Assembly (NCBI GenBank): GCA_963811165.1
Contig: CAWEQH010000003.1
Coordinates: forward strand, 1-46,892
Length of the DNA stretch: 46,892 nt
Direction: 5' to 3'
Source of the DNA: an uncultured Nitrospiraceae bacterium
Lineage (GTDB): Bacteria > Nitrospirota > Thermodesulfovibrionia > Thermodesulfovibrionales > UBA6898
Shown: positions 31,066 to 46,892 of the stretch, piece after piece
Position numbering within the stretch: position 1 is the stretch's first letter
Layout of the letters: the number at the start of each line of letters is the position of its first letter
The notes under the pieces: model-generated
Database searches by the model: none
The model's input: the letters and a program-made list of their open reading frames with translations, nothing else
What the model was told of the DNA's origin: nothing
Translations under genes and position numbers: made by a program

Positions 31066-32177
31066 AGATACTCCATCTGCTTTACGAAAGCAAGGGCGAT
31101 TATTTCGGGATCGGCGGTGTCGGAACGCGCGCATACGAGATTTACGGCCGCCTCAAAGGCAGGCACGAAATTACGCTTTTGTGCAAAAAATATCCTGGCG
31201 CACGCGACAAAGAGATAGAAGGATTGGCACATATCTTTGCGGGTACCGAAAGCAGGAGTCTCACCAGGACGCTGCTGTCCTACGCATACAGGGCGGCCCG
31301 CTTTGTCGCTGAAAAGGGGATAGAATATGATCTCATAATTGAGGAATTCTCCCCGGCCGTACCGACCTTTCTCCATGCCGTTACGAAAAGGCCGGTTGTG
31401 CTGCAGGTCCAGGGATATACGGGGTCCCTTTATTTCAGGAAGTACAACCCCCTCTATTCTTCGGTCCTTTTTCTTTTGGAGCACCTGCGGCCGTTGCTCT
31501 ATTGCAACTTTATATTTATAAATGATGAGACCGCGGGCAGGCTCTTTCTCGATAACAAAAAGCATAAGACGGTCATCCCAAACGGCGTGGCCCCCGAACT
31601 CTTCGGCCTCCCGTTTCGGCGAGGGGATTACATACTTTACCTGGGCCGTATCGACATGTACGGCAAGGGGCTCGACCTGCTTCTTACTGCGTATACTGAA
31701 TTTTGCAGGTCTTTCGGCAACATCAAACTGGTCGTGGCCGGGGACGGCAGGGACATGGAAAGGTTAAGGTCCGCGGTGACGGCACTGCCGGAGGGCGTAA
31801 GGGGGAACATCGAACTTCCCGGTTGGGTCTCGGGAGTAAAGAAAAGCGAAATTATCGGTGATGCCTCTTTTGTCGTCTTTCCTTCCAGGCATGAGGTCCA
31901 GCCCATATCGGTCCTTGAGGCTATGGCCTGCGGGAAGTCTGTTTTAGTGAGCGATATCCCCGCATGCTCTTTTGTCACGCAAAACGGGGCAGGGGTCTCC
32001 TTCAAGTCAGGGGACCCGGTCTCGCTGGCCCTCTCTATGAAAGGTCTCGCCGAAAGCTCCGCACGTGAAGAAATGGGGATCAAGGGAAGGGAATGGGTCA
32101 AAAATTTCACATGGGACAGGATCGCCGCTCAATATGAGAAGTTCCTTGTCGAGACAGTCGAATCTTACTCGGAGTAA
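31062..32177 (+). CDS. Glycosyltransferase family 4
   Basis: GTGA overlap with the upstream stop; YLGRID..KGLD, PSRHEVQPISVLEAMACG, FTWDRIA. Confidence 0.9.
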   Translation: MKILHLLYESKGDYFGIGGVGTRAYEIYGRLKGRHEITLLCKKYPGARDKEIEGLAHIFAGTESRSLTRTLLSYAYRAARFVAEKGIEYDLIIEEFSPAVPTFLHAVTKRPVVLQVQGYTGSLYFRKYNPLYSSVLFLLEHLRPLLYCNFIFINDETAGRLFLDNKKHKTVIPNGVAPELFGLPFRRGDYILYLGRIDMYGKGLDLLLTAYTEFCRSFGNIKLVVAGDGRDMERLRSAVTALPEGVRGNIELPGWVSGVKKSEIIGDASFVVFPSRHEVQPISVLEAMACGKSVLVSDIPACSFVTQNGAGVSFKSGDPVSLALSMKGLAESSAREEMGIKGREWVKNFTWDRIAAQYEKFLVETVESYSE

Positions 32178-33385
32178 ATGACCGCCTTGATCTTCTCCTT
32201 GTCTTTTATCTTTGCGGCCAATTTTGCCGACTCTTTTCTGTCTGAGGTATTTCCGATCAGCACACGGTAGAAAGTCCCTTTGTCTTTGCCGGAGCCCCTG
32301 ACCACAAAGGCATCGTATCCTTTCCCCTTAAATTTATTCGTAAGCGCAACAGCATTGTCTTCGCTTTTAAACACGCCCAGTTGGACGGAATAAACTGCCT
32401 TCCCTGAAGGTTTCGCTTTAGCCGAAGGCGTGGGCGCCGCTGCGGCAGGGAGAGGCGGTCCTTTTTTCACAGGCATTATGGGTGCCGGGGAAGGCGTTGC
32501 AGGGGCTGTTTTCCCGGCAGACGGGGAAGCCGCAGGGGCCGTTTTATTCTCAGCGACTGTCTGCTGTTTCTGCTGCTCATTTACCGGAGCAGGCGACGGA
32601 GTCGGAGACTGAGCGGGCGCCGGAGGTTGGGCCTTCGGCTTCATCGCGGTACTCAATGGCTTTATGGGGACGGCCTTTTTGGCCCCCATTCCCGGTATCA
32701 GCCCGAGGTAAAAGAGGGCGCCTGCAGCGATTCCGACAATTAAAATGGCCGCTCCGGCGATGACCGCAGGGAGGCTGCTCTTCTTTTTTCTGCGCCTTGA
32801 CGCTTCTTTTGAAATGTAGGCATCCGCAGGCTCCGGAACTTTTTTCTCCCCGTACACAATTTCTCTATCAGGCTCTTCGTCAAGCTCCGGTATCCCCGGC
32901 ATCTGAAAAATCTGAGGCTCGATGTCAGGGGCCTGTTTTACAGCCGGGCGCTCAATGGGGAAGGCAGTCTCTTCGCTTTCAAACGCACGTTCTTTTTCCT
33001 TGACGTGCAGTACGATGGGGGCCTTTGTATCGAGGACTTTCGCGGTCTTTTCGAGGAGCTCCGCGGCGGTGAAAGGGACGGTAAGCACATCGGCAACGCC
33101 GAAGGCCGAAGAGACGGCGGTGTCTACTTTGCTCAACGGAGATGTCAATAACACGAGGGGGACCTTCTGCAATGACTCGAACCCGCGGATCGTCCTGCAC
33201 ATCTCAAGCCCTGTTTCATCGGGGTTTATGAATATGAGGGAAGGGCTGACTTTCTGGGCCATTTCCGTTCCGACGTCACCGCCGGGGACCGCAAAAACGA
33301 GATACCCTTCCGATTCGAGAGTCGACGCGATAAGCTGCTCCGTCTCGCTGTCGGCGTCAATTACAAGGATTGTTTTGCTTGACAT
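32165..33385 (-). CDS. Pseudo-receiver domain - acidic linker - single TM - Pro/Ala linker - SPOR domain protein
   Basis: CheY-like N-terminus (TILVIDAD..PSLIFIN..VPLVLLT..VLTVPF); RRRKKK then hydrophobic TM; PAPA-rich stalk; YSVQLGVF..NA..YRVLIG SPOR domain. Confidence 0.88.
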   Translation of the reverse strand: MSSKTILVIDADSETEQLIASTLESEGYLVFAVPGGDVGTEMAQKVSPSLIFINPDETGLEMCRTIRGFESLQKVPLVLLTSPLSKVDTAVSSAFGVADVLTVPFTAAELLEKTAKVLDTKAPIVLHVKEKERAFESEETAFPIERPAVKQAPDIEPQIFQMPGIPELDEEPDREIVYGEKKVPEPADAYISKEASRRRKKKSSLPAVIAGAAILIVGIAAGALFYLGLIPGMGAKKAVPIKPLSTAMKPKAQPPAPAQSPTPSPAPVNEQQKQQTVAENKTAPAASPSAGKTAPATPSPAPIMPVKKGPPLPAAAAPTPSAKAKPSGKAVYSVQLGVFKSEDNAVALTNKFKGKGYDAFVVRGSGKDKGTFYRVLIGNTSDRKESAKLAAKIKDKEKIKAVIYSE

Positions 33386-33425
33386 AGTAAATTCCCTCTC
33401 ATTGGGTTAACGTATTCAGGGGACC

Positions 33426-34454
33426 TCAAAGAGGTTCCCAGTACTTCGAAGGCATATCTTGCGCCAGTTTGAGCGCGCCGTTTGACCCGGCAAACAGGGG
33501 GTCTTCAACGCATGATACCCTGCAGGGGCCGTATTCTCTCAGTGCATCCTGCAGATATTCGCGGAGGCCCCGGATCAGGCTGCCGCCGCCTGCTAAGACG
33601 ATGTTGTTTTTTATCCTGACCTGGAATTCCGGATCGAACCTCGCGATCATCTCGGTGGTCGTCTCGGTGAGCGCCGGAAGGATGCTTTCGCAGGCCCGCT
33701 TGATCTCGTTTTTTATGTCGTGCATGACGGGCTTGCCGTCGACCGGTATTTCCGCGCGGACCTCTTCGGCCGTGTCCCTTACAAAGCTGTATTTTTCCTT
33801 GAACAGACGCACCATGTTCTTATTGAACCTGGAGTTGGGATACTTCTCGCTCAGATAGCTGAACAGCTGGTCGTCTATGTAGTCGCCCGCGGTCAGTATG
33901 GTCTTTTGGTCTTCCTCAGTCGGGATCGCCCCGTGCATTATGCAGAAATCGGTCGTGCCCGCGCCGATATCGATGACGAGCGAGTTGTTGAGGAGGTTCA
34001 TTCCGTAGGCGACCGCAAAAGGCTCGGTGACCACCATCAGTGCCTGGACGAATTCCGTCACGGCATTTCTTATGGCGAGTTTGTTGACCTTGAGGGTATC
34101 GGCCGGAACCCCCACGACCGCGTGTATCTTTTGTTCCGGTGAGGGGCCCGCAAGTTCGATGAGATGCTTTATGATCTCCTTCACCGCCTCTTCGTTTTTG
34201 CCGATCCCTTCCTTTATCACCCCGTGCTCAAGAGGCCTGCAGACGTCGAGGGAGAGCCTGTTTTGGAGCGCCTCGGCGCCGAAGAGCACCGGCTTGCCGA
34301 CGACCTGCATCGAGATAAAGTCCTTGGGCCAGCCCACGAAACTCTCGATCCATTCCCTCTTGTCGTTGCCGGCCGAGATCGCGGACCTCGATGTCCCGAG
34401 GTCGATCCCTACGAACAGGATGTTATCTTTTTTCTGCGGATCCGTTTGCCTCAT
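33426..34454 (-). CDS. MamK-like actin-family ATPase
   Basis: GIDLGTS, VGWPKD, PLEHGV, AVVGVPA, EPFAVAYG, DIGAGTTD, AGGGS, CVEDPLFAG..GALKLA..P..YW match the recalled MamK layout better than MreB. Confidence 0.88.
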   Translation of the reverse strand: MRQTDPQKKDNILFVGIDLGTSRSAISAGNDKREWIESFVGWPKDFISMQVVGKPVLFGAEALQNRLSLDVCRPLEHGVIKEGIGKNEEAVKEIIKHLIELAGPSPEQKIHAVVGVPADTLKVNKLAIRNAVTEFVQALMVVTEPFAVAYGMNLLNNSLVIDIGAGTTDFCIMHGAIPTEEDQKTILTAGDYIDDQLFSYLSEKYPNSRFNKNMVRLFKEKYSFVRDTAEEVRAEIPVDGKPVMHDIKNEIKRACESILPALTETTTEMIARFDPEFQVRIKNNIVLAGGGSLIRGLREYLQDALREYGPCRVSCVEDPLFAGSNGALKLAQDMPSKYWEPL

Positions 34455-35472
34455 AGCTCATTTCTCCTTTATTTAGGTAATCCAGTATCCCGGCCTCAAG
34501 ATAATGGGCGATATTCTCCCTGTGCCCCGGGGTGTTCAGCATCTGTTCCTCCTCTTTGTTGCTCAGGCATGAGACCTCCGCCAGCACGGCCGGTATGTCC
34601 ACTCCAAGCAGCACGACGAAGGGCGCCCTCTTGACCCCGAAGTCGTAGGCGTTTCCGTTGTCTTTCTTGAAGTTCAGAAAAAGCGTTTTTTGTATGGAAT
34701 ATGCAAGGCCCCTGGACTCCTGCGTCTTCATCCTCTCCCCCAGCTTTTCGATGATCTCCTTGAAATCGCTCAGGCCGTACTGGGACCCGGCGTTTTCCTG
34801 TTCCGCAAGCCTTTGCGTCTTGGTATCGGCAGAGGGACCGAAAAAGTAGGTCTCGATGATATTGATCGGTTTGTGGGGAATATAATTGAGATGAATGGAC
34901 AGGAAGAGGTCCGCCTTTTTTGATACTGCCATATCGACCCTTTTATTGAGGGGCACCGTAACGTCCTGGTCTCGGGTCATCAACACGTTAAACCGGCCGT
35001 ATTTGTCTAAACGTTCCTTCAGCCTCCTTGCGATGTCTAAGGTGATGTCCTTCTCAAGAGTGCCCATTACTCCCTTTGTGCCGGAGTCTGCGCCGCCGTG
35101 CCCCGCGTCTATCATGATCGTCCTTACCCCTAGGCCGAAGGTGCGGCTGACCGACATATCGGGATTGGTGATAAATGCCCGAAAATCGGCCGGACTTGAT
35201 TTGGGGCCGGGAGTGAGAATTTTTTGACTTATCTCGCTGGCGGTCAGCTGTTTTTCCGAGAAGAACGAGTTTGAGACGTAGGAGCCGTGGACCAGGATAG
35301 CGACCGTTGAGATAAGCAGGGTCAGGAAAAACTTATTGAGGAGAAAAGGTTTTTGCCGTGATGCAACGCCGTCGCCCTTGCCTATGATCCGCAAATTTTC
35401 TTCATAGACGCCCCGCAGCATCTCCTGCTTTATTTTGAGATCGGTCCTTTTCCGCGAAAAAATAGAGATCAT
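34423..35472 (-). CDS. Membrane-anchored N-acetylmuramoyl-L-alanine amidase (Amidase_3, AmiA/AmiC-like)
   Basis: IDAGHGG, EKDITL, SIHLN and LAEVS Zn/catalytic residues; AEQEN helix; N-terminal TM FFLTLLISTVAILV; 32-nt overlap with the actin gene. Confidence 0.92.
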   Translation of the reverse strand: MISIFSRKRTDLKIKQEMLRGVYEENLRIIGKGDGVASRQKPFLLNKFFLTLLISTVAILVHGSYVSNSFFSEKQLTASEISQKILTPGPKSSPADFRAFITNPDMSVSRTFGLGVRTIMIDAGHGGADSGTKGVMGTLEKDITLDIARRLKERLDKYGRFNVLMTRDQDVTVPLNKRVDMAVSKKADLFLSIHLNYIPHKPINIIETYFFGPSADTKTQRLAEQENAGSQYGLSDFKEIIEKLGERMKTQESRGLAYSIQKTLFLNFKKDNGNAYDFGVKRAPFVVLLGVDIPAVLAEVSCLSNKEEEQMLNTPGHRENIAHYLEAGILDYLNKGEMSYEANGSAEKR

Positions 35473-35484
35473 GACGTTCACAAC

Positions 35485-35513
35485 ACTTTACCAATTTGCG
35501 GGAAAAAATTCAA
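35485..35513 (-). promoter_or_regulatory. Putative sigma70 promoter for the amidase-actin-SPOR operon
   Basis: Minus strand TTGAAT-N17-TAAAGT with a TG extended -10, 12 nt upstream of ATG 35472. Confidence 0.5.
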
Positions 35514-35557
35514 TGGTGAATGCGGGTTGCGTAAGAAGAGTGAGCTTCGGTTGGATC

Positions 35558-36458
35558 CTAACCGTTTTCTAATTTCCCGTATTCTCGGATAAAGTCCCTT
35601 ATGCCCCTAAAATACATTCTCAGCTTCTCTATTTTTTTTGATTCCCATAATATCGTCTTTACAGGTCTCCTGATTCAGCCTGAAGATCTCAAAATAGAGG
35701 AATGACCTATAGTTCTTTCCGTATTTAAAAAGGGTATATAGGCTATTTTTCGTCTGGTAATACACTCTTACGGGTTGATGCTCCCTGTATTGAAAAAAAA
35801 GTTTTTGTTTTGTTTCGGCAAGGGAGTGATAAAGCAGGGCATTTTTGCTTAAGAGTATTCTGAGATTTCTATCCAGAATTCTGAAACAATAATCAAAATC
35901 GATATAGTCAATAAACAGGTTTTCGTTCATTAATCCTATTTTCGAGACAAGCTCATTTTTCAGAAGACTGCCGGAAGTAATATGGAAATGGACAAAGCAA
36001 TCACCTGCTGGAGTCTCAATTTTTTTGTTAAGAAAATTAGTGGTGATGACCGACGGCAGCATTTTTTTGAAATTTCTGTCATATACCGTAGGAACTACCA
36101 AAGCCGTTTCCTTTTTTGCTTCCTCATCAAGATCATTATATGACCGAAGCATTTCACCTATCATACTTTCCGCGAGGATGCTGTCCTGGTCCAAAAGGAG
36201 TGTCCATTTGCAGGCATTATCCAGAGAATAACGAATTCCCTGGTTCAAGGCGGCTGCGAGTCCCTTATTGCAGTCATTGAATATAAAAGCGATCCTGTTG
36301 GCGTGCGGCAGCGCGAGGAGTGCGTTTCTTACCCGCTGATCAGCGCTGTTATCGATTACTACAATTTTATCTGCCTGGTTCTCTAACGAATCGATACAGG
36401 TGATCACACTTTCAGGCGAATTGAAGGAAACTATGACCGCGCAGACCGAATTATTTAT
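35558..36458 (-). CDS. GT2 rhamnosyltransferase (RfbF-like); atypical start and a C-terminal frameshift
   Basis: VCAVIVSFN upstream of the ORF-track start, IDNS, NKGLAAALNQG, LLDQDS, ITSGSL, FIDYIDFDYC; alternate frame ..MYFRGIRDF..* ends at 35558. Confidence 0.82.
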
Positions 36459-36606
36459 AAATCCTTTCCGTTTACCGGTGAATTATACCCCGAAAGGCAA
36501 TTAGAAATGTACTTTTGCCGTGGAGAATCAGCAAAGAACAGCAGTAACACGGGCGGGGTGCAGGCGAAACTTCTTCCACGGGACCGCAAAATATCCGGCA
36601 GTCAGT

Positions 36607-38238
36607 TCATTCGAGCCTTAATTTTTCCGGCACTGCACTAACCTCGATAGAATTAAGGTAATAATCGCCCGGCACCTCGCCAGGGTCTAAACGCAGTTTT
36701 CCATAAAGATCAGCAGAAGGCACGGGAACAAACAGCAAATTTTTCCCCTTCCTGAGAAAACGTCTTATGCTCAGCGTTTCGGTATATTCCCGTGAGGCGT
36801 TTGTCATATAGTATAGCTGCAAATTTGTATCTGCAGGACTCATAATATCTATTTTGATGATAGGATATCTGTCTTTGGGCAGAGAGAAAAACGGGAGTTC
36901 AATGAATGGGTCTCCTCCCGTAGCTTTAATTCGCAGGCCGGATTTATGAAGACTTTCCTTTGAAATGCTGGCCTCATGCAAAGGGACAACACCTGCGTAA
37001 TTTGTTTGAGGATTGCCGAGTATCAGAATATCGGACGTGCTGTAAAAACACTTCCGGAAAAAAATATTCTGGAACTCCTGGCTGATAGGCAGGGCGGGCA
37101 ATTTTTGGAGAGAGCGTTGACTATTTCATCTATCACGATATCCGGCCGCTCATGAGAGATAATCGGTTGGTAAAGATTGTCTTCCAAAATATAAACATAA
37201 ACGCTCCGTCTGAAGTTTTCGGAAAGATAGGGGACTAGCGCATCCCGGAAGGAGTCCCCGAATAAGACCATTTTAGGGAGATGCCCTGCTCGTTCCTCAA
37301 AGACAGGGAGTGTCCAGTCCGGAAACCCCTTTAAGTGCTGCAACTTATAGACAAGTTCAACTTTATGCGCCTGTAAAGGGGAAAGCCTGGAAAACTGCGG
37401 AACAGTTTCCTCAAGAAAAGCACTGCTCACCAACATATCCGAAAGATCAAATCCTTTGCGGACTTTATACTCAATTTTGAAGTCCTCCGGCAAAAGAGGG
37501 CGCATACTAGGAAAATAAGCGGCAACATTCCTTATGATTTCGCGATAGGCGATAAAAGCCCCAAATTCGTTCCAATGGGTATCGTTCTTATAATAAACTG
37601 AGTGGTCCTTTTTAGCCTTGATCAATGCACCGTATACATCAACCATCCGTATATACGACTTCTCTTGCAGGTGCCGCCGAAGTTGATCAAGATGACTTCC
37701 CCTAGGGGCATAAGCTTCGGGGAGAAATTCGGGATAGATGGATTGCTTATCGGGCACCATTATCTAAGAAATAGGGGATACCTTGTTCAGCCAGCCATTC
37801 GTGCTTGGCTTCCAGGTAAAACTGCAGTTGCAAAAGCTGTATCTGATCGAAAGGAGTGTTCAGTAAATAATCATCCTTTAACGTTGAGACATTATCTCCA
37901 CGATAAAAAAGCCATCCCTGCTTCCCAATGACTACCTTGGGAACCGGGGAAGTCGATAGAAACCGGGTTTTCAGGTAGCTGTTCAAGGCTATTAATTGGC
38001 CTCGTAGTGGGAAACGGTCATTGTAGTATTTCTCGAATTCCCTTGGAAAATTTCTTAGGGCAGACACCCCGAGGGTGACCCTTGGAAACGGGGCAAGAGC
38101 CCTCTTTTCATTTAGTCCCGTCGCGTTTTTGATATTAATAATATCCCATACTAGTGGGGAAAATATGGCGGCAAAGAATAAAATGATTACGAACTTCTTT
38201 GAAACTGAGCCAATCTTTGCCGGACTATGCTTTTTCAT
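36607..38238 (-). CDS. AlgJ/AlgX-like SGNH O-acetyltransferase with C-terminal beta domain; two frameshifts
   Basis: N-terminal TM, EKRALAPFP, GKQGWLFY, PDKQSIYPE, DTHWN (DxH), GDSF across ORFs 37747-38310, 37023-37760 and 36607-37101. Confidence 0.82.
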
Positions 38239-38245
38239 CCCGCTC

Positions 38246-39692
38246 CTAAAATCTGAAATAAATAAATGGATTATATGTCCCGCTTGCAAGAGATATGACA
38301 GAGGCGACAAAAACGAGACTTAGTCCTAAGCCCTTACAACGTGCGCTCCATACGTGACCTCCGGTAGTGTCCTAATTTTAGTGTCCGCGTTGACCAAATA
38401 AAGCGCTAATAATGGCTTCAAAGGCACAGAACCGGCAATGCCGACAAGCACCGCCAATAATAACTCCGGCGTCATGTACATCGAGACCGTATGTTTTACG
38501 CCTGCATATCTGTGAACTCCGCCCATAATGGACAGGTAATCGAGCGCGCCCGAAAGAAGTGTCAGCCCTAAAAAAAACCCACCCCACGGTGACAATGAAA
38601 AGTGTATAGAAATGCCTTAAGGGCGCTCTCTTTTGGTCGAGCCATCTTCCGAACCCCGTACGCTCAAGGACGAGGAAGACACCGTGCAGCATGCCCCATA
38701 TTACAAAATTCCATTTCGCACCATGCCACAAACCGCAAAGGAAAAATACTAGGACAAGATTAAAATATGTCCTTCCAACAGAATTCCGATTGCCCCCAAG
38801 CGGTATGTAAAGATAATCCCTGAACCAATTGGACAGGGAGATGTGCCATCGCCTCCAGAACTCCCTTACTGATTTTGCAATATAAGGATAATCGAAATTT
38901 TCGAGAAAGCGAAACCCGAACATGCGGCCAAGTCCAATCGCCATGTCCGAATATCCCGAGAAATCAAAATAGATTTGGAGCGTGTAGCATATGATTCCCA
39001 GCCATGCCAGTCCCGTCGAACGGGTACCGGAGGGAAGGGAAAAAATCTGGTCGACGGTCAGGGCCAGCGTGTTTGCTATCAACGTCTTCTTTCCGAGACC
39101 GATAATAAATCGCCTTATTCCAGTCACAAATCCATCCAGGCTCGGCAAACGGGAGGCGATTTGGTCCGCTACGTCGTGATAACGGATGATCGGTCCCGCT
39201 GACGAGTTGCGGGAAAAGAGAAACGTAGAGAGCGAAATCAGCTGGATTCTTCTGCACCTTCACAATCCGGCGATGCACGTCGATAAGATAAGACATAGTG
39301 TGGAATGTATAAAAAGATATGCCAATGGGAAGATGCACAGGAGCGAACGCAAGCGGACCGATTCCGGCGATATGCAAAAGACCGTTTAGGTTTTCGGCCA
39401 GAAAATTTGCATATTTATAAAAGCCAAGTAGAGAAATATTAAATATGACGGCACCCGCCATAACCGGTCCCGCCTTCCACTTGCCGTGAAACCGATCTAT
39501 CAGAATGCCGAACAGATAATTACATGCGATCGAAATAAGCATTATGAAGATATAAAGTCCTTCTCCCCAGGTATAAAAGCAGAGGCTTGCAGCCAAAAGG
39601 AACGCATTTTGGAATTTTTTCCCGATCAGGTGATAAACTGCCAGGACTAGGGGAAGAAAAAGAAATAAAAATATCAGCGAGCTAAAAACCAA
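38246..39692 (-). CDS. algI: AlgI/DltB-type MBOAT O-acyltransferase; frameshifted
   Basis: [56 protein letters not shown]-terminal [12 protein letters not shown] ends at 38246. Confidence 0.88.
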
Positions 39693-39963
39693 CTGACTCT
39701 CCGAATAAAAAATAAAAATAACTGAATTGTCTCATGAGGCCCCGCCCAAGAGTTTGCATGGAATATGCTGAAAGACTAGTGAATGTACGCATCGCCTGAA
39801 TGCCATATATGCTTGTTCTGATCCCAAAAAAAAATTTACTTATATTATCACATCTGCAGGAAATAAATGGTTAAGCGGTGACTATGAAGGGCTAATATCT
39901 TAATATATCCTGTCCTGCTCATTTCTTGATTTAGGTCCGTTTATCCTGCATAATAGCACCGGC

Positions 39964-40730
39964 ATGTCTATTACGATTCTCAAGAAATTCCAAAAACTAT
40001 TAACTTTTTTCTCCAGCCGACAGCATTCGGAAACCGTAGCGGAGCAGAAGCAGCCCCTTTCGCGTCACGAAATTGCCGTCGGCTATCTGACAGGAACCGG
40101 GCTTGAGATTGGAGCCCTTCATAATCCATTATCTGTGCCGGCAGATGTGACTGTCCGCTATGTTGACCGCCTCACCCTGGAAGAGCTGCGAAGGCACTAT
40201 CCGGAACTCGATAGAACAAGTATCGCTGCACCTGATATCATCGATAATGGAGAAATATTGGCTTCCTTGCCCGACGCCTCCTTTGATTTCGTTATCGCAA
40301 ATCACATGATAGAACATAGTCAGGACCCTATCACGGCGCTGAAGAACTGGCTCCGGGTGATAAAACCCGGCGGGATAGTGTATCTGGCCGTCCCGGACAA
40401 ACGGTATACATTTGACAAAGACAGGCCAATAACGTCGATAGACCATCTAATGAGAGATTATCGCGATGGGGGACAGCGATCAAAAAAAGATCACTTCGAC
40501 GAATGGGTCAAATTAGTCTATAAGATTCCCAAAGAAAAGTCGCCTCCAGGGTTCGAGAACTACTGGATATGGATTACAGTATCCATTATCATGTGTGGAC
40601 TCCAAAAGATTTTTTTGAACTGCTGACGCACTGTCAGGAGAAATTACATTTTCCATTCCGGATAAAATTATTCCAGGAAAGCAATGATGAAGTTGTTGCT
40701 ATATTGAGAAAGGATCAGCCGTCTCAATAG
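39964..40730 (+). CDS. SAM-dependent methyltransferase (type 11); frameshift near 40545
   Basis: GLEIGAL, FDFVIANHMIEH, KPGG; alternate frame SIHYHVWT..AILRK..* ends at 40730. Confidence 0.82.
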
Positions 40731-40882
40731 CCTCTCATCTATAACAGCAGGAGCCAATCCCCGCATTTACTTCGGCGCACGAAAAAAGTTACGATTATGA
40801 AATAAGTTATAGGGGAATCGCTGGAGGCAGTCCAGCCAACTGAATAGCTTTAATAATACGAGGAAAGTCATAGGATAAGGAT

Positions 40883-41839
40883 ATGCTCGACGAATATACT
40901 TTAAAGACAAAGCTCATGTTGAATGAGAGGTTTAAGATGGTTGATGAGGATGGGGTATACTGGGCACATCAGCCTGTTTACGGGTTTCGATCGGGTCATG
41001 AAGAAGCAGGCCGGTTTGACCAGTATATTCGCACCTACGAGATAATGAGAAGTCTTTCTCATCTTGACTTTAAGACATTACTGGATGTGGGCGGGGCAGA
41101 AGGCTGGAAAGCATTTCTTGCAAGAGAACTGTTTGGAGCTGAAGTAACAAACTCAGATCTTTCGGAAGAGGCTTGTAAAAGAGCTGCTGAGCTTTTCGGG
41201 ATTAGATCGGTTCCCGGGGACGTACACGAGCTGCCATTTAACTCCGACGAGTTTGAGGTCGTACTCTGCAGTGAAGCCCTGGAACACGCTAAGGACGTGA
41301 ACAAGGCTCTCAGAGAACTGCTGAGGGTCGCAAGAAAAGCTGTAGTGATTACGGTGCCGCACGAAACAAAAGAAGAGGTGGAGAGGAACATCGCGGAAGA
41401 AGAGGTACACGGTCACATACATGTTTTCGATTTGGAAAGTTTTAATTTTCTAAAATCCGATGGATATGAAGTTCTTTGCAAGAAAGTCATGACCAAGTAT
41501 TCGGTAGCCCTTGCACTCAAACTAATTGACAAGGAACTGGTGCAGCAAAAAGTCGTGGGGGCAAAGACTTTTAAAGCGCTATTATCTCATTTGTGGAACT
41601 TGTGTGTGCCGGTGGCCAATAAAATCTTATTCGATAAGAGTACGACTGCACTAATCATGAAACTAAATAGTTTGATTTCGCCTTTCACGGAAACATACTA
41701 TAATACGTTATTTGTGATTCTGAAAGATAAAGGATGCCTTAAAAGGAAAAAAATACGAACTGTTTCAGCATATGATATCCTAAATTTCAAGCGTCCTTTG
41801 TATTACCCGGATATGAAGGAAATCAACAGTTCAACATAA
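40883..41839 (+). CDS. Class I SAM-dependent methyltransferase
   Basis: LLDVGGAEG, GDVHELPF, VLCSEALEH, VITVP. Confidence 0.88.
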   Translation: MLDEYTLKTKLMLNERFKMVDEDGVYWAHQPVYGFRSGHEEAGRFDQYIRTYEIMRSLSHLDFKTLLDVGGAEGWKAFLARELFGAEVTNSDLSEEACKRAAELFGIRSVPGDVHELPFNSDEFEVVLCSEALEHAKDVNKALRELLRVARKAVVITVPHETKEEVERNIAEEEVHGHIHVFDLESFNFLKSDGYEVLCKKVMTKYSVALALKLIDKELVQQKVVGAKTFKALLSHLWNLCVPVANKILFDKSTTALIMKLNSLISPFTETYYNTLFVILKDKGCLKRKKIRTVSAYDILNFKRPLYYPDMKEINSST

Positions 41840-41898
41840 TAAGGCGAAGCTGTCTATCGACAATAAAATAATAGCTTATTCAATAGGGTCCGACAGTC

Positions 41899-42915
41899 CT
41901 ATTCGAGAGGGTCAGATTGAAGGATGGTTCCGCCACTCACTATAACAAACGTGCCGTTGCCGCAAGAGACACTGTAAAGATCATTGGAAGTCCCTGATGT
42001 CCTTTGCTTCCATGATATTCCGTCTGATGAGGTAAGAATGGTTCCGCCGTTTCCCACTGCAGCGAAGCTGTGATCACAGTAGGTGACTGCCAAAAGATGG
42101 TTAGAAGTGCCCGATGTCCTTTGAGCCCATGATATCCCATCCGGTGAGGTATATATAATTCCCGTCTTGCCAACGGCGACAAAAGTGCCATTTCCGTAAG
42201 CCATATCAAAAAACTCATCGGAAATACTCGATAGCCCGCCGGTCCATGATATCCCATCTGACGAGGTTACTATAATGTCATTGGATCCATCGTATCCCAC
42301 GGCGCCGAAGATCCCTTCACCATAAGTGACATCCAAAAGAGAGTTGGTTGTTCCCGACGATCTTTGAATCCACGAAATCCCATCCCTTGAGGTCCATATC
42401 ATTCCGCCATCTCCCACGCCAACAAAAATGCCATTGCCGTAAGCGACATCGAAGATAAGCGGGGACTGCCTTCTGGTCCACGATATCCCGTCAGATGAGG
42501 CGATCATAGTGCCTATAAACTCAGGGACAACAAAGACGCCATTGCCGCAAGTAACACCGTAAAGATAATTGGAAGTGCCCGATTCTCTCTGAGTCCAAGA
42601 TATCGCATCGGGCGATGTGAATATCATGCCCGCACTTCCCGCCACTTTGACGAAAGAAATCTGTCCTCCAACCCCAACAAAGAGACCATTGCCATAGCTT
42701 ATCCTATTCAAGCCTATTCCCGCTGGCAGGGGATTTCTCAGATACCAGTGGTCGAGAGGGTTGCCAGGCGTTGGTGTTGGTGTCGGCGTAGGGGTGGGAA
42801 TGGGTGTTGGATTCGGTGTCTGGTTAGGTCCATTGCCGCCCCCGCAACCGCTCGGCATCAGGAACATCCCAAAGATGACAAGTGAACTAAAGAAATGCAA
42901 GTGCTTTTTCCCCAT
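41899..42915 (-). CDS. Lipoprotein with Pro-Thr linker and Asp-box/BNR-like beta-propeller
   Basis: Lipobox PSG-C, (PT)n stalk, about 7 repeats of YGNGxFVxVG..IxTSxDGISW. Confidence 0.85.
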   Translation of the reverse strand: MGKKHLHFFSSLVIFGMFLMPSGCGGGNGPNQTPNPTPIPTPTPTPTPTPGNPLDHWYLRNPLPAGIGLNRISYGNGLFVGVGGQISFVKVAGSAGMIFTSPDAISWTQRESGTSNYLYGVTCGNGVFVVPEFIGTMIASSDGISWTRRQSPLIFDVAYGNGIFVGVGDGGMIWTSRDGISWIQRSSGTTNSLLDVTYGEGIFGAVGYDGSNDIIVTSSDGISWTGGLSSISDEFFDMAYGNGTFVAVGKTGIIYTSPDGISWAQRTSGTSNHLLAVTYCDHSFAAVGNGGTILTSSDGISWKQRTSGTSNDLYSVSCGNGTFVIVSGGTILQSDPLE

Positions 42916-42945
42916 TTAAGTTCCCCTTTTTTGCAGGATGGCCGC

Positions 42946-42974
42946 ATTATAGTGCGCTCAGGACATTACGTCAA
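42946..42974 (-). promoter_or_regulatory. Near-consensus sigma70 promoter
   Basis: Minus strand TTGACG-N17-TATAAT, about 30 nt upstream of ATG 42915. Confidence 0.7.
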
Positions 42975-43010
42975 TTACCGGTATAATCTCCCTGCAGGAG
43001 AATCAAGTCA

Positions 43011-44359
43011 CTAAATGATGCTTTTGTAAATGCCAGTGACCTTTTCGAAATGGTTTTCGAGCGAATCGAGTTTGACCTCTTGCGCGCCTTCGATCAGTCG
43101 TTTCAGAAGGTCCCTATCTCCAAGTATTCTTCTCGTTTTCTCAAGAAGATCCCCTTCCTTGAAAGGGTCAAATAAAAGACCGTTCACCCCGTCTTCTACA
43201 ATTTCCGGCACCCCGCCGAGATTGCTGGCTATGACGGGTTTTCCGGACAAAAGCGCTTCCCTTAATACTATTGGAGAATTCTCCTCCCAGACGGACGGGA
43301 ACAAAAGGACATCAAACGTCGATAGCACCTTCCAGAGTTCCTCAAAGCTATTCTTGTACGGTCCGCAAAACTCACTGCACCAGCTGGGAGGTTTGCCGTC
43401 TTCGTGCGAATCTCGTCAAAATAGCCCAGGTCGTATGGCTTCCCATAGACAAAAAGGCTTACGGCATCCTGCCGAAGCAGTGGCAAAAGTTCTCTCACAA
43501 CGACGGCCAGGCCTTTGGGATGATTAATGTTTCCCATATAACCAAACCGCAATTTTTTACCCGGGTTAGCTTCTACCTTGGGGACCGGTGGAAATCCGAG
43601 AGAAAGATACTGCATCCCCTCAAACCCTTCTTTTTCAAACCTCGCGATCAAATGTTTAGACGGGCTGATTTTATATTTCAAGAAATTGAACTGTCTTTTA
43701 AGAAAATTCAGCCTGAAATTAAATTCAACCGCCCGCATCTCCCGAGACGTTCTTAGCATGTCGACCTCTTCTTTTACCTTGGCGACATGAGCCTTCAACC
43801 GGCCCGGTACGAATCTCTTGAACCTGTTGATGACCCTGTACTCACTGATGGCAGGGGGATCAAAGCAGGAAATGCAGTTGACGCCGTCAAAGGGGCCCGG
43901 GCATATCCTGTTTTTGCCGTCAAGAAACTGAACCTTGGGGCAGAGAAACCAGTAATCGTGAAAGGTCATGAGACATGGGATATTATATGAGCTGGCTATT
44001 TCTGGGAGTTCCGCCGACAGAAGGACGAGATGCTGAAAGTGGATGAGGTCGGGTTTCTCTTTGTCGAGGATATTCCTGAACGCACGCGAGATATAAGGAT
44101 TGAGAAATTCCTTCAGACTACTTGAGCTGTCGATCGCTTTGTATATCCGAAGGCCTTCTAAATCCTGTCGGACATATCCCTCCGAATGGTCATCTTTTCG
44201 GGACAGAGGACCGGTCAGCCTGGTAAATACTACCACCTCGATGCCTCTATCGGAAAGCGCCCGGGCGAGGTTATAGGAATAGATTTCGGTCCCCCCTAAT
44301 TCAGACGGAGGAAACCCGTGCGTAACAATTAAGATTTTCTTGAGGCTGTGGTTTCCCAT
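43011..44359 (-). CDS. Glycosyltransferase family 4; frameshift near 43350
   Basis: VTHGFPP..GGTE, IHFQHL, TFHDYWFLCP, GYMGNI..KG; continues in ORF 43011-43328 (PSVWEENSPIVLREA). Confidence 0.87.
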
Positions 44360-46892
44360 ATTATATTTTCAAGTTGACTGACAGCATCTCTGACGTTTGG
44401 AGAATAAGGAATGATATGAAACAACGTTGCCCATGGATGAGGAATGTCCACATACTTATCAGAGCCGGGCAAGTATACCAGGTGTGCTGTCCTGGCTCTC
44501 TGTGTGTAGGCGGTCACAGAGGAGTTATACGGGTCGGTACACAAGAGCACATCATGAGACATCATAGCACCAATTTCTGCAACGGAGATGCTGGCCGCCG
44601 TGTTCATAGACCCCGGAATTTCCCCACCTGCGTGATCGCCGTTGCTCCCATAATAATAATACGTTATGCGATGTCCGTTCTTCGCCAGTTCTTCTGCAAC
44701 TGCAGTCACACGGCGGTATGCCTCCTGGTTAGCCGGACTATCAGCAATAATAAAGCCGGCTGAAAAACTCTTTTCAGGGATGTTGCGCTTCTGTCTAGCG
44801 GCTGTAATTATGTTGCGATATACTTCGTTTGCCTGACGGGCCAAGGCACCCGGAGAATAGAACTTCCTGACGTGCTCATGAGCCTCATTACCCATGGCGG
44901 CCCTCAACGCCGGGTCGGTCACCAACGTCTTCAGATGTGTATACCATTCATCAACCGTGGAGGCAAGAAACCCGTTTTCGCCATGCGTAATGGCATGTCG
45001 GAAGGCATCGGTGGGAGACGTTACACTGGGAATTTTCATCAGGCCGGCGTATATATACTTGAGTTCGCTCTTGGCCTCACAAAAAATATTACCGCTCTCA
45101 AGCGGAGCGATGTTTATATCACAAGGCAGCATGGCCGCAGGCAACTCTTCAAGCGGGACGAGAGGTACCCTTTCTATCCTCTCAGAAAAGAGGTCGAAGC
45201 GCCGGTCCATTTCCATCAGGCCGCAAATATATAGATCGCGCTTTCGCACTCTCTCAAGTACCCGCGACAGTGCCGGAATAATATGTTGAAAATCCTTTTG
45301 GTGCGTATTCGTGCCGCTGAAATAGCCGATCCTCACCTTTCCGTCAGACTTCACTGCCGCCTTGGATTGCAATTGGTCCAGAAAACTCTGGTACAGCGCC
45401 TCACTGAAGCCATTGCGTATTACAAAGGCTTCCCGGCCGATTTCCCCAGCTTTATTCGCCAGAAACTCAGTGGGCGCGATGAAATAGTCGCAGGCCTCCA
45501 GCGTCTGCCGGCACTGCAACATATGTTCGATCAGCCGCTCCCGTTCGGTCCCTTTAGTATGTTTGACCCACTCCACCTGGTGGATTACCGAAGCCTCGAA
45601 AAGATAATCGTCTATGTCGAAAACCGAGACAATGTTCCGACTCCTGCAAGCGCTAATGAACTCCTTCAGTAACGGAGTCATCGGTATCCTGTGTATGACG
45701 ACCAGGTCGAACTCGAACACTCGTGGAATATGGTGAGGCAGATCCTCCAGGTCGAAGGACCTCTGCCGGCGTTCCGTTTCTTTTCAGGTATTCGGCCATG
45801 TTATCGACCCTGTAATGATTTGTAATGCCCGCCCATTCCCACTTCACAAACAGAACTCGGTAGGCTCTCGGCGACGGAAAATGATCCGGATACGCACGGG
45901 ACGTGGGCAGCATAGGGGAAGTAGGTTCAGTGGAGGAACCATTACCACCTGACCGGGTTAGCCCATTTCCTGCCTTCCTCAGAAAGACTCCGGGCCCCTC
46001 ACGCTGCAAGACACCCAATGCCTTCTTACCGGATCGGTACGCATTGCCCCGGGCAAGACCGGCTGGTAGGATGGCTTCCCTCGCTCTTCTAAAACGTTCC
46101 AAAAACTTCCATCCGCGGGTGTTTCTTATAGCCTCAAGGTCGTTCCGAAGTCTGACTATTTGTCCCTCTTTTTCTTCGAGCGTAATATCTTTCTGCGATA
46201 AACGGTTTTCAAGCTTGTCTATGTGCATATCTTGCCTGAGAATCTCTTTGTCTCTTTCAGCAACAGATTTCTCCAGATTGCCTATACGGATGTCTTTTTT
46301 TGTAAGGGTTCTTATCAACTCGTCTCTCTGCCCGATCAGCCTGTCTCTGTCAGCGACAGCTAATTCCACCCCCGCAATTGACTGTGTCTTTTCTCTGAAT
46401 ACTGCCCGAAGTTCCTCCAGTTGCGCTAACAGAGCATCTCTTTTTTGTTTCATGCGATAAATTAGCTGGGGAGTAATACGGTGCAAGTGCTTGCCGATAA
46501 TTCTTAGGTGCGTCTCAAACATAATATCAGTATCCGCCTGGTTAATCTGCAATTCGCTGCTCCACTGATAATATTTTGCGGTGGTTTTCTTAATATGGAA
46601 GAAAACATAATCCCGTGCCAGGCGTATTAATAGGTCCCAGTCTTCGTAAAGGTCGAAGGACTCGTCAAAGACACTTCTTCCGGTCCAATAACTCAGATTT
46701 GAAGAGGAGAGAATTAAAAGGGATATAGTTGTTGATGAGAAGTTCTTCATAGACAAAATCTTCCGAAAAAAGAGCGGTCACTGTCTCTGTCATGCGTTTA
46801 TCTTCGGGAGAATAAAGCTGGGACACCATTTCCGTGTCCGCATAGGCTATTTTCAGATCATTTGCCTCAGTAAAAGAAACCAGAGTTTCCAC
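44329..46892 (-). CDS. Multidomain glycosyltransferase (GT2 + coiled coil + GT4-like), 5'-partial, frameshifted
   Basis: NNYIP..FDESFDLYEDWDLL (GT2), long coiled coil ending RGWKFLERFRR, FDIDD, GYFSGTNTH, DINIAPLE..KSELK; joins near 46690 and 45740. Confidence 0.82.

Follow-up and report, generated by a model that had tools for sequence, protein, structure and literature searches.

An amidase gene paired with a MamK-family actin gene across bacterial phyla, and a predicted contact between the two proteins

Introduction

What is the role of a MamK-like actin whose gene overlaps that of a cell wall amidase, in a stretch of DNA without magnetosome genes? The question is raised by contig CAWEQH010000003.1 of an uncultured Nitrospiraceae bacterium (assembly GCA_963811165.1), the whole of which (contig C3; 46,892 nucleotides, nt) is the window analyzed here. 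Three genes are concerned, all on the minus strand: an Amidase_3 gene (34423..35481; 352 amino acids counted from GTG, from which its residues are numbered throughout), a MamK-family actin gene (33426..34454; 342 amino acids), and a gene for a protein with a receiver-like (REC) domain, a transmembrane segment and a SPOR domain (32165..33385; 406 amino acids). An earlier note on this DNA had joined them into a self-contained module, in which the amidase marks the wall, the SPOR domain reads the mark, and the pseudo-receiver couples it to the actin filament. The results point to a smaller unit: amidase and actin genes are conserved as a pair, and, by prediction, a helix of the membrane-anchored amidase docks into the actin, which would probably tie wall cutting to an internal filament.

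Conservation of the gene pair

The conserved unit is two genes, amidase and actin, not three. A search of 300 other Nitrospirota genomes with the MamK hidden Markov model (HMM) gave 27 positives. Seventeen of the 300 carry an actin of the same clade as that of the window (62-85% identity), and in all 17 the amidase gene lies directly upstream; the ten other HMM-positive genomes hold distant forms at 11 loci, nine of them with mam genes and none with an amidase nearby. The amidase with its N-terminal tail was recovered from the same 17 genomes at E ≤ 4e-85, and the next 20 matches (E ≥ 1e-51) comprise the catalytic domain only, without the tail region, genome G294 possessing both kinds. In the class of the genome of locus L212 (titled Thermoanaerobaculia, Acidobacteriota), the actin is present in 77 of 121 genomes and the amidase in 76, all of them actin-positive (76 and 75 of 120 without genome G409). 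By reading of the coordinates, the genes are adjacent in 75 of the 76, the two exceptions being actin genes at the start of a contig.

A total of 106 distinct paired loci were assembled (111 rows minus five duplicates), at which the genes overlap in 91 cases, lie within 50 nt of each other in 13, and are farther apart in two. These loci carry the labels Nitrospirota, Thermodesulfobacteriota, Acidobacteriota, Aminicenantes, Rokubacteria, Pseudomonadota, Myxococcota, Rhodothermota, Gemmatimonadota, Sumerlaeota, Chloroflexota, and Bacillota, where a phylum label borne by a single bin may be a binning error. Five further clade loci are cut too near upstream to be judged, one of which shows the end of an amidase gene. 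Distances in the actin and amidase trees are correlated (r = 0.95 over 36 pairs), a value to which kinship contributes. Amidase and actin genes thus lie side by side, in most cases with an overlap, are inherited together across phyla, and show no connection to magnetosome genes. Of the synteny that the earlier note had envisaged, the amidase–actin part is conserved, whereas the REC-SPOR gene is adjacent at only 50 of the 106 loci. No amidase domain was found in the 23 long actin homologues scanned for a fusion of the two proteins.

The amidase and its cytoplasmic tail

The amidase matches PF01520 (Amidase_3) with 143 bits, and its catalytic domain spans residues 122-332 (34486..35118, minus strand). 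The zinc and catalytic residues are kept almost throughout the paired loci (H128 in 103 of 106, E143 and H197 in 105 each, E302 in all; the remainder are alignment gaps), and the enzyme, assigned to Amidase_3 from the outset, accordingly appears to have an intact active site. The domain includes a helical insertion of the kind seen in AmiA and AmiC. Autoinhibition in AmiA, AmiB, and AmiC involves a blocking helix, which sets an acidic residue over the zinc site; here, the acids that follow the conserved EN of AmiA align to Ser-Gln, and residues 234-244 were modeled with a predicted local distance difference test score (pLDDT) below 50.

A transmembrane anchor is predicted at residues 46-68 (35278..35346, minus strand) from hydropathy and a model helix, and is found approximately 40-50 residues from the amidase start across loci. 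The cytoplasmic tail that precedes it contains a conserved helix (residues 7-32; 35386..35463, minus strand; AlphaFold pLDDT of about 67) with a motif around L22-N29, which is the predicted actin-binding element. Among 62 aligned tails, from which four loci had been dropped (three with a mis-picked motif and one with a frameshifted actin), N29 is invariant and L22 is present in 56. A pattern search recovered the motif from 94 of 97 full-length amidases, and the three misses are near variants.

Modeling of the tail with the actin

When residues 4-45 of the tail were folded with the actin, the interface score (ipSAE) was 0.84, against 0.01 for the best of three controls; the runs agreed in at least 89% of contacts, with a partner pLDDT of at least 70. 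In benchmarking, 116 of 157 solved complexes and two of 215 mismatched pairs attained the mark set for a complex, counts that are only rough for the alignments used. The difference between 0.84 and 0.01 is the basis on which binding of the hydrolase to the polymer through its cytoplasmic N-terminal tail is predicted.

The predicted contacts are made by L22, V25, Y26, and N29 with actin residues 139-142, 150-156, 175-177, and 330-338, residues 122-129 lying alongside. The tail helix is thereby predicted to dock between subdomains IA and IIA, in a groove that we take to be equivalent to the cleft between subdomains 1 and 3 of eukaryotic actin. The ParR helix uses the IA/IIA groove of ParM. Amphipathic helices, including monomer-binding and capping ones, occupy the cleft of eukaryotic actin (PMC2583105), and the end of ParM to which ParR binds is the barbed one (PMC6599009). 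One wall of the predicted site is formed by actin helix 118-132, which contains five of the 13 residue-class shifts specific to the amidase-linked clade (p = 9e-5, post hoc). Basic residues at the positions of K122 and R129 are confined to this clade, and L139 is likewise clade-specific.

Proposed mechanism

In the mechanism that we favor, the tail helix (L22, V25, Y26, N29) would bind the groove between subdomains IA and IIA of an actin that presumably polymerizes with ATP like MamK. The amidase would be produced in smaller amounts than the actin, and a few amidase molecules, through their tails at the groove, would keep filament ends in place at the membrane, in the way that ParR holds ParM. 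The enzyme would be concentrated at these ends, leading to local removal of stem peptides and to cell shaping or separation. The module would act besides the standard MreB, FtsZ, and AmiC machinery, and the REC-SPOR protein, where present, likely binds denuded glycan and would not be required. Coupling of a cytoskeleton to the cell wall, as the earlier note had it, is upheld insofar as the actin is tied to the amidase; its route through the REC-SPOR protein is not, the conserved and predicted link being the amidase's own tail.

Several observations weigh against this reading. The module is patchy (17 of 300 Nitrospirota genomes), and a deep member of the actin clade, L190, may be an exception, the 379 bp upstream of it giving no amidase match. 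In a genome of the same genus (G280), the locus L126:5699-8571 retains the family-typical flanking genes with only a 118-residue SPOR fragment between them, which suggests that amidase, actin, and receiver were deleted as a block. Because it is patchy and apparently deleted in this relative, the module is not essential. Taken together, the interface positions do not exceed random ones in conservation within the clade (0.717 against 0.696, with 1728 of 5000 draws equally high), and the interface contains only two of the 13 clade-specific shifts (p = 0.21). Since helices commonly bind in a groove such as that of the predicted site, the complex score may reflect solved ParM-ParR or WH2-actin structures known to the predictor. 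Finally, shape, separation, and a pore are all conceivable as the cellular outcome.

A bolder form of the favored mechanism, which we regard as conceivable though doubtful, is that the tail acts as a membrane-bound regulator of WH2 or ParR type, capturing or nucleating filament ends at the IA/IIA groove, and that a treadmilling MamK-type filament drives the wall-cutting enzyme along a track. If true, this would be a cytomotive wall-cutting machine in about ten phyla, beside the elongasome and the divisome.

The same complex prediction would also fit an amidase that serves mainly as a membrane anchor, cap, or monomer trap, while the filament positions other cargo or a trans-envelope structure, for which wall cutting makes room. 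The monomer-binding and capping helices found in this groove of eukaryotic actin, the binding of ParR to ParM's barbed end, and the positioning of cargo by relatives of MamK are all in keeping with such a role. We consider it unlikely, in that no fourth conserved neighbor family was found to travel with the pair (the most frequent occurs at 10 of the 106 loci), and the active site of the amidase is kept throughout.

The REC-SPOR gene

The product of the third gene (32165..33385, minus strand) consists of a pseudo-receiver (Response_reg match of 35.5 bits, residues 6-113), an acidic linker (residues 121-195, 18 Asp or Glu of 75), a transmembrane segment (residues 207-227), a Pro-Ala linker, and a SPOR domain (PF05036 match of 51 bits, residues 331-403). 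The receiver does lack the phospho-accepting Asp, as had been noticed before: the window protein has Asn at this position, and Asp occurs in two of 52 adjacent rows and one of 12 stand-alone copies. Residues Q335, F339, and R374 of the SPOR domain are invariant (15 of 15) and match the denuded-glycan-binding residues described in PMC6895207; judged by its residues, the domain thus keeps the glycan-binding Gln, and the protein may read the product of the amidase.

The gene is a lineage-restricted companion of the pair. It is adjacent at 50 of the 106 loci (seven had no downstream room), exclusively in Nitrospirota and in Syntrophales-type or unclassified deltaproteobacterial bins; it is unlinked in G272, G190, and G256, all three of which carry the pair; and genomes that lack the pair, some of them magnetotactic, have the gene by itself. 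Of these unlinked and solitary copies, 14 loci were fetched, 12 of them full-length. The REC-SPOR protein cannot, then, be the conserved adaptor, and the self-contained three-gene module of the earlier note is not supported. Separately, loci L121-L134 indicate that pseudo-receiver/transmembrane/SPOR proteins make up a distinct family across Thermodesulfovibrionia, in which a motif following strand 4 is conserved and the neighbors vary.

A three-part circuit, in which the amidase writes denuded glycan, the SPOR domain reads it, and pseudo-receiver and acidic linker adapt it to the filament, is improbable as an account of the module, although the REC-SPOR gene is adjacent at nearly half of the loci (judged by REC match, in 14 of the 17 Nitrospirota genomes sampled), no terminator-like site separates it from the actin gene in the window, and the biochemistry fits a SPOR domain that retains the Gln binding denuded glycan. 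The gene is never adjacent at loci of Acidobacteriota, Aminicenantes, Rokubacteria, Pseudomonadota, Rhodothermota, or Desulfobulbaceae, and whole-genome searches of five such genomes gave weak receiver-type matches or none in four, the fifth being a Syntrophales-type positive. To this are added the unlinked copies in the three pair-bearing genomes, the copies in genomes without the pair, and the host's further complement of three SPOR proteins and an AmiC-like amidase besides those of the locus.

Operon neighbors need not bind each other, and the two genes of the pair might simply be co-regulated and transferred together, their products never making contact. The interface is not unusually conserved, and the prediction may represent an amphipathic helix of generic type lodged in a sticky groove. 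Absence of contact is nevertheless hard to credit: an invariant Asn and a conserved cytoplasmic helix on a periplasmic enzyme need a cytoplasmic partner, the genes are present together almost without exception in two phyla, and the complex scored far above its controls. For these reasons, we continue to favor docking of the amidase tail into the actin.

Identity of the actin and the magnetosome question

The actin passes the NCBIfam MamK model (NF040964) narrowly, with 409.2 bits against a cut-off of 400. Its structural model (pLDDT 92.5) has the MamK filament 5ljv_A as top fold match, with a template modeling score (TM-score) of 0.91, a root-mean-square deviation of 1.5, and 40% identity. The nucleotide-site residues D18, G20, D162, G164, and G166 are present in 101 of 101 full-length clade members, and E144 in 99. 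Phylogenies were calculated using FastTree (189 rows, from 316 sequences thinned at 80% identity) and IQ-TREE (67 rows picked from the FastTree set, LG+G4), neither of which included ParM, FtsA, or Mad28. All amidase-linked actins form one clade (support 98/91 in IQ-TREE and 96 in FastTree), distinct from proteobacterial magnetosome MamK, from a branch of Nitrospirota and Desulfobacterota magnetosome MamK together with planctomycete homologues, from BeeR, and from MreB. Grouping of the Nitrospirota clade members with Nitrospirota magnetosome MamK was rejected by the approximately unbiased (AU) test (p = 9e-132). The description of the protein as a MamK-like, non-magnetosome actin is therefore borne out by a clade apart from magnetosome MamK and MreB; an ancestral role of MamK-like actins stays conjectural, neither tree fixing the order in which the deep branches arose.

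Three other identities were considered and rejected. Against BeeR, the protein scores 233 bits (cut-off 530), begins with some 10 disordered residues rather than an extension of 30-50, and falls on a separate branch; against canonical MreB, it scores 92 bits (cut-off 293), and the genome has a separate MreB. Mad28, which stood outside the trees and was compared on criteria, has Ser in place of the phosphate-2 Asp and 15-17% identity to MamK (PMC10653835), whereas D162 is present in all 101 clade members, and identity to MamK is approximately 40%.

The window is one contig of a 3.66 Mb genome that is 95.4% complete, the closest named relatives of which are Thermodesulfovibrionales. The genes of seven magnetosome loci from other Nitrospirota were used as queries against it, and no mam orthologues were found: MamA, B, M, P, and Q retrieved generic paralogues at 22-38% identity on scattered contigs, MamE a generic paralogue with up to 44% identity across the protease domain only, and MamI nothing, and the MamM model scored 125 bits against a cut-off of 350. 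The lack of mam genes, first remarked for the 47 kb window, thus extends to the genome, in which no magnetosome gene set was found. That the actin is nonetheless a magnetosome MamK, or the relic of a lost magnetosome island, is very improbable, since its pass of the NCBIfam cut-off, its top structural match, and an order that contains magnetotactic Nitrospirota are set against the missing mam orthologues and low MamM score, just 42-45% identity to Nitrospirota magnetosome MamK, and the AU test.

The host encodes a separate MreB (C1:88787-89818; 27% identity to the MamK-family actin), as well as FtsZ, another AmiC-like amidase, and three further SPOR proteins; the amidase–actin unit therefore comes on top of the standard machinery. 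The locus also occurs as two frameshifted duplicates, at G000:C2:29565-32966 and G000:C1:600300-603595 (L011, L012). The C2 copy shares approximately 71-82% nucleotide identity with the window over the amidase, the actin, and the start of the receiver, and 97-100% in the sequence downstream, a pattern suggestive of a block-swapped allele or of mixed strain haplotypes. Because both copies are frameshifted and lie within near-duplicate contig stretches, they are more likely strain haplotypes of one locus than paralogues.

Comparison with known systems

The closest working analogue is the bactofilin BacA of Hyphomonas neptunium and Rhodospirillum rubrum, which binds the bitopic M23 peptidase LmdC by the latter's cytoplasmic tail, the two being encoded by an overlapping gene pair (PMC10945521). 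Both systems comprise overlapping, widely conserved genes for a cytoskeletal protein and a bitopic hydrolase with a short conserved N-terminal cytoplasmic region, the binding being predicted in the present case. They differ in that an actin-fold ATPase takes the place of a nucleotide-independent β-helix, an Amidase_3 enzyme that of an M23 peptidase, and an α-helical tail that of the β-hairpin of LmdC; neither the bactofilin nor the M23 family matched any of the three window proteins. With ParM-ParR of plasmid R1, the pair shares a short partner helix, here predicted, at the barbed-end face of a bacterial actin. ParR links to DNA, whereas the amidase helix belongs to a membrane enzyme, and the present gene pair lies on the chromosome; neither a ParR-like gene nor a centromere was seen, though no search aimed at them was made.

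Magnetosome MamK (5LJV, 5LJW, 5JYG; NF040964) resembles the window actin in fold (TM-score 0.91), nucleotide-site motifs, and HMM match, at about 40-45% identity. The latter differs in its separate clade, the absence of mam genes, the residues of helix 118-132, and an amidase as partner rather than magnetosome adaptors. MamK-related actins of non-magnetotactic bacteria have been described as saltatorellin, which forms filaments in E. coli (bioRxiv 10.1101/817700), and BeeR (PMC11929497; PDB 8R2N). Unlike the amidase-linked clade, the planctomycete homologues and BeeR lie on other branches with no amidase upstream at the loci fetched, and the window actin lacks the long N-terminal extension of BeeR. 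No mention of an amidase was found in the available portions of the saltatorellin preprint or of PMC10653835. The septal system of AmiA, AmiB, and AmiC with FtsN-like SPOR proteins shares the Amidase_3 fold, the helical insertion, and a bitopic SPOR protein of FtsN-like layout; the present amidase is distinguished by its membrane anchor and cytoplasmic tail and by Ser-Gln after the EN motif, and the genome has its own AmiC-like protein and FtsZ elsewhere.

No description of the amidase–actin pair was found in the literature searched, most subscription journals and all supplements being outside its scope, and the two-gene module is real and apparently unpublished, and probably belongs with the cytoskeleton-tethered hydrolases. 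It provides a concrete partner and a testable interface for a large non-magnetic branch of the MamK family, the members of which are labeled "MamK" or "MreB" in databases. A MamK HMM match in such genomes is no sign of magnetotaxis, because 17 of the 27 other HMM-positive Nitrospirota genomes belong to the amidase-linked branch. Were the binding true, this would be a second, independently built cytoskeleton–hydrolase module besides bactofilin-LmdC, with an ATP-driven polymer, and it would bear on the engagement of MamK-type filaments by adaptors.

Transcription and translation signals

The arrangement of the locus is as first described: three co-oriented genes, the amidase and actin genes overlapping by 32 nt, with the actin ribosome-binding site AAGGAG (34464..34469, minus strand) 9 nt ahead of the actin ATG and within the 3′-end of the amidase gene, and a gap of 40 nt between the actin and SPOR genes, in which a scan for terminator-like sites revealed none. 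The putative promoter has also gained credence. A likely σ70-type promoter is predicted at 35485..35513 (minus strand), with a -35 element TTGAAT (35513-35508), a 17-nt spacer, and an extended -10 element TGn-TAAAGT (35493-35485). It lies below the threshold of the scanner, with 8 of 12 matches, yet footprinting found the pattern TTGAAT-17-TGnTAAAGT in 37 of 70 related loci, which are kin and not independent, compared with a mean of 1.8 and a maximum of 7 in shuffles. Sequence conservation among the related loci ends immediately upstream, and the likely promoter ahead of the amidase gene is conserved in relatives.

The amidase most likely starts at ATG 35472 (349 amino acids), since the transcript is expected to start only downstream of the GTG, and the corresponding Met is the first residue of homologues. 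Given the position of the promoter, this start would leave a very short leader. A Shine-Dalgarno-like motif was found in none of 38 short amidase leaders examined and ahead of the actin gene at 73 of 80 loci. From this contrast between a short leader without the motif and a strong site before the actin gene, we surmise that more actin is made than amidase.

Additional observations

The SPOR gene and a convergent glycosyltransferase gene share 13 bp at their ends (32165-32177), with no terminator-like site at the junction. On the other side, homology with the C1 and C2 copies stops at 35520, just upstream of the promoter, and the glycosyltransferase/AlgX/MBOAT/methyltransferase cluster at 35607-46756 differs between the copies; the operon thus borders a variable polysaccharide locus.

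The wider survey of the MamK family yielded further observations. In genome G262, two actins (L101:9234-10346 and L102:9364-10443) belong to the Nitrospirota magnetosome-MamK branch and have no mam genes in approximately 20 kb, one lying among response regulators and the other behind a gene that is CheW-like by eye. An archaeal bin titled Candidatus Methanoperedens contains a MamK-family actin gene (L194:5001-5975) with no amidase upstream. MamK proteins from magnetosome clusters are not monophyletic in the 67-row tree, where the deep-branching ones join non-magnetic planctomycete homologues (support 100/99); forcing them together was rejected by the AU test (p = 0.002), the group having been chosen after viewing the tree and the model being simple. 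Protein P0157 (768 amino acids), which is placed among proteobacterial MamK, has an FtsZ at its N-terminus, with a score exceeding the ftsZ cut-off, fused to a MamK-family actin at its C-terminus, and could be either real or an assembly join. Lastly, a group of MamK-family actins (P0125, P0127, P0129, P0130, P0133-P0136, P0139, P0141, P0142, P0144, P0148, and P0153) carries N-terminal extensions of about 190-900 residues without a Pfam domain, which are of low complexity in the four inspected; the 13 that were placed form one clade with a support of 99.

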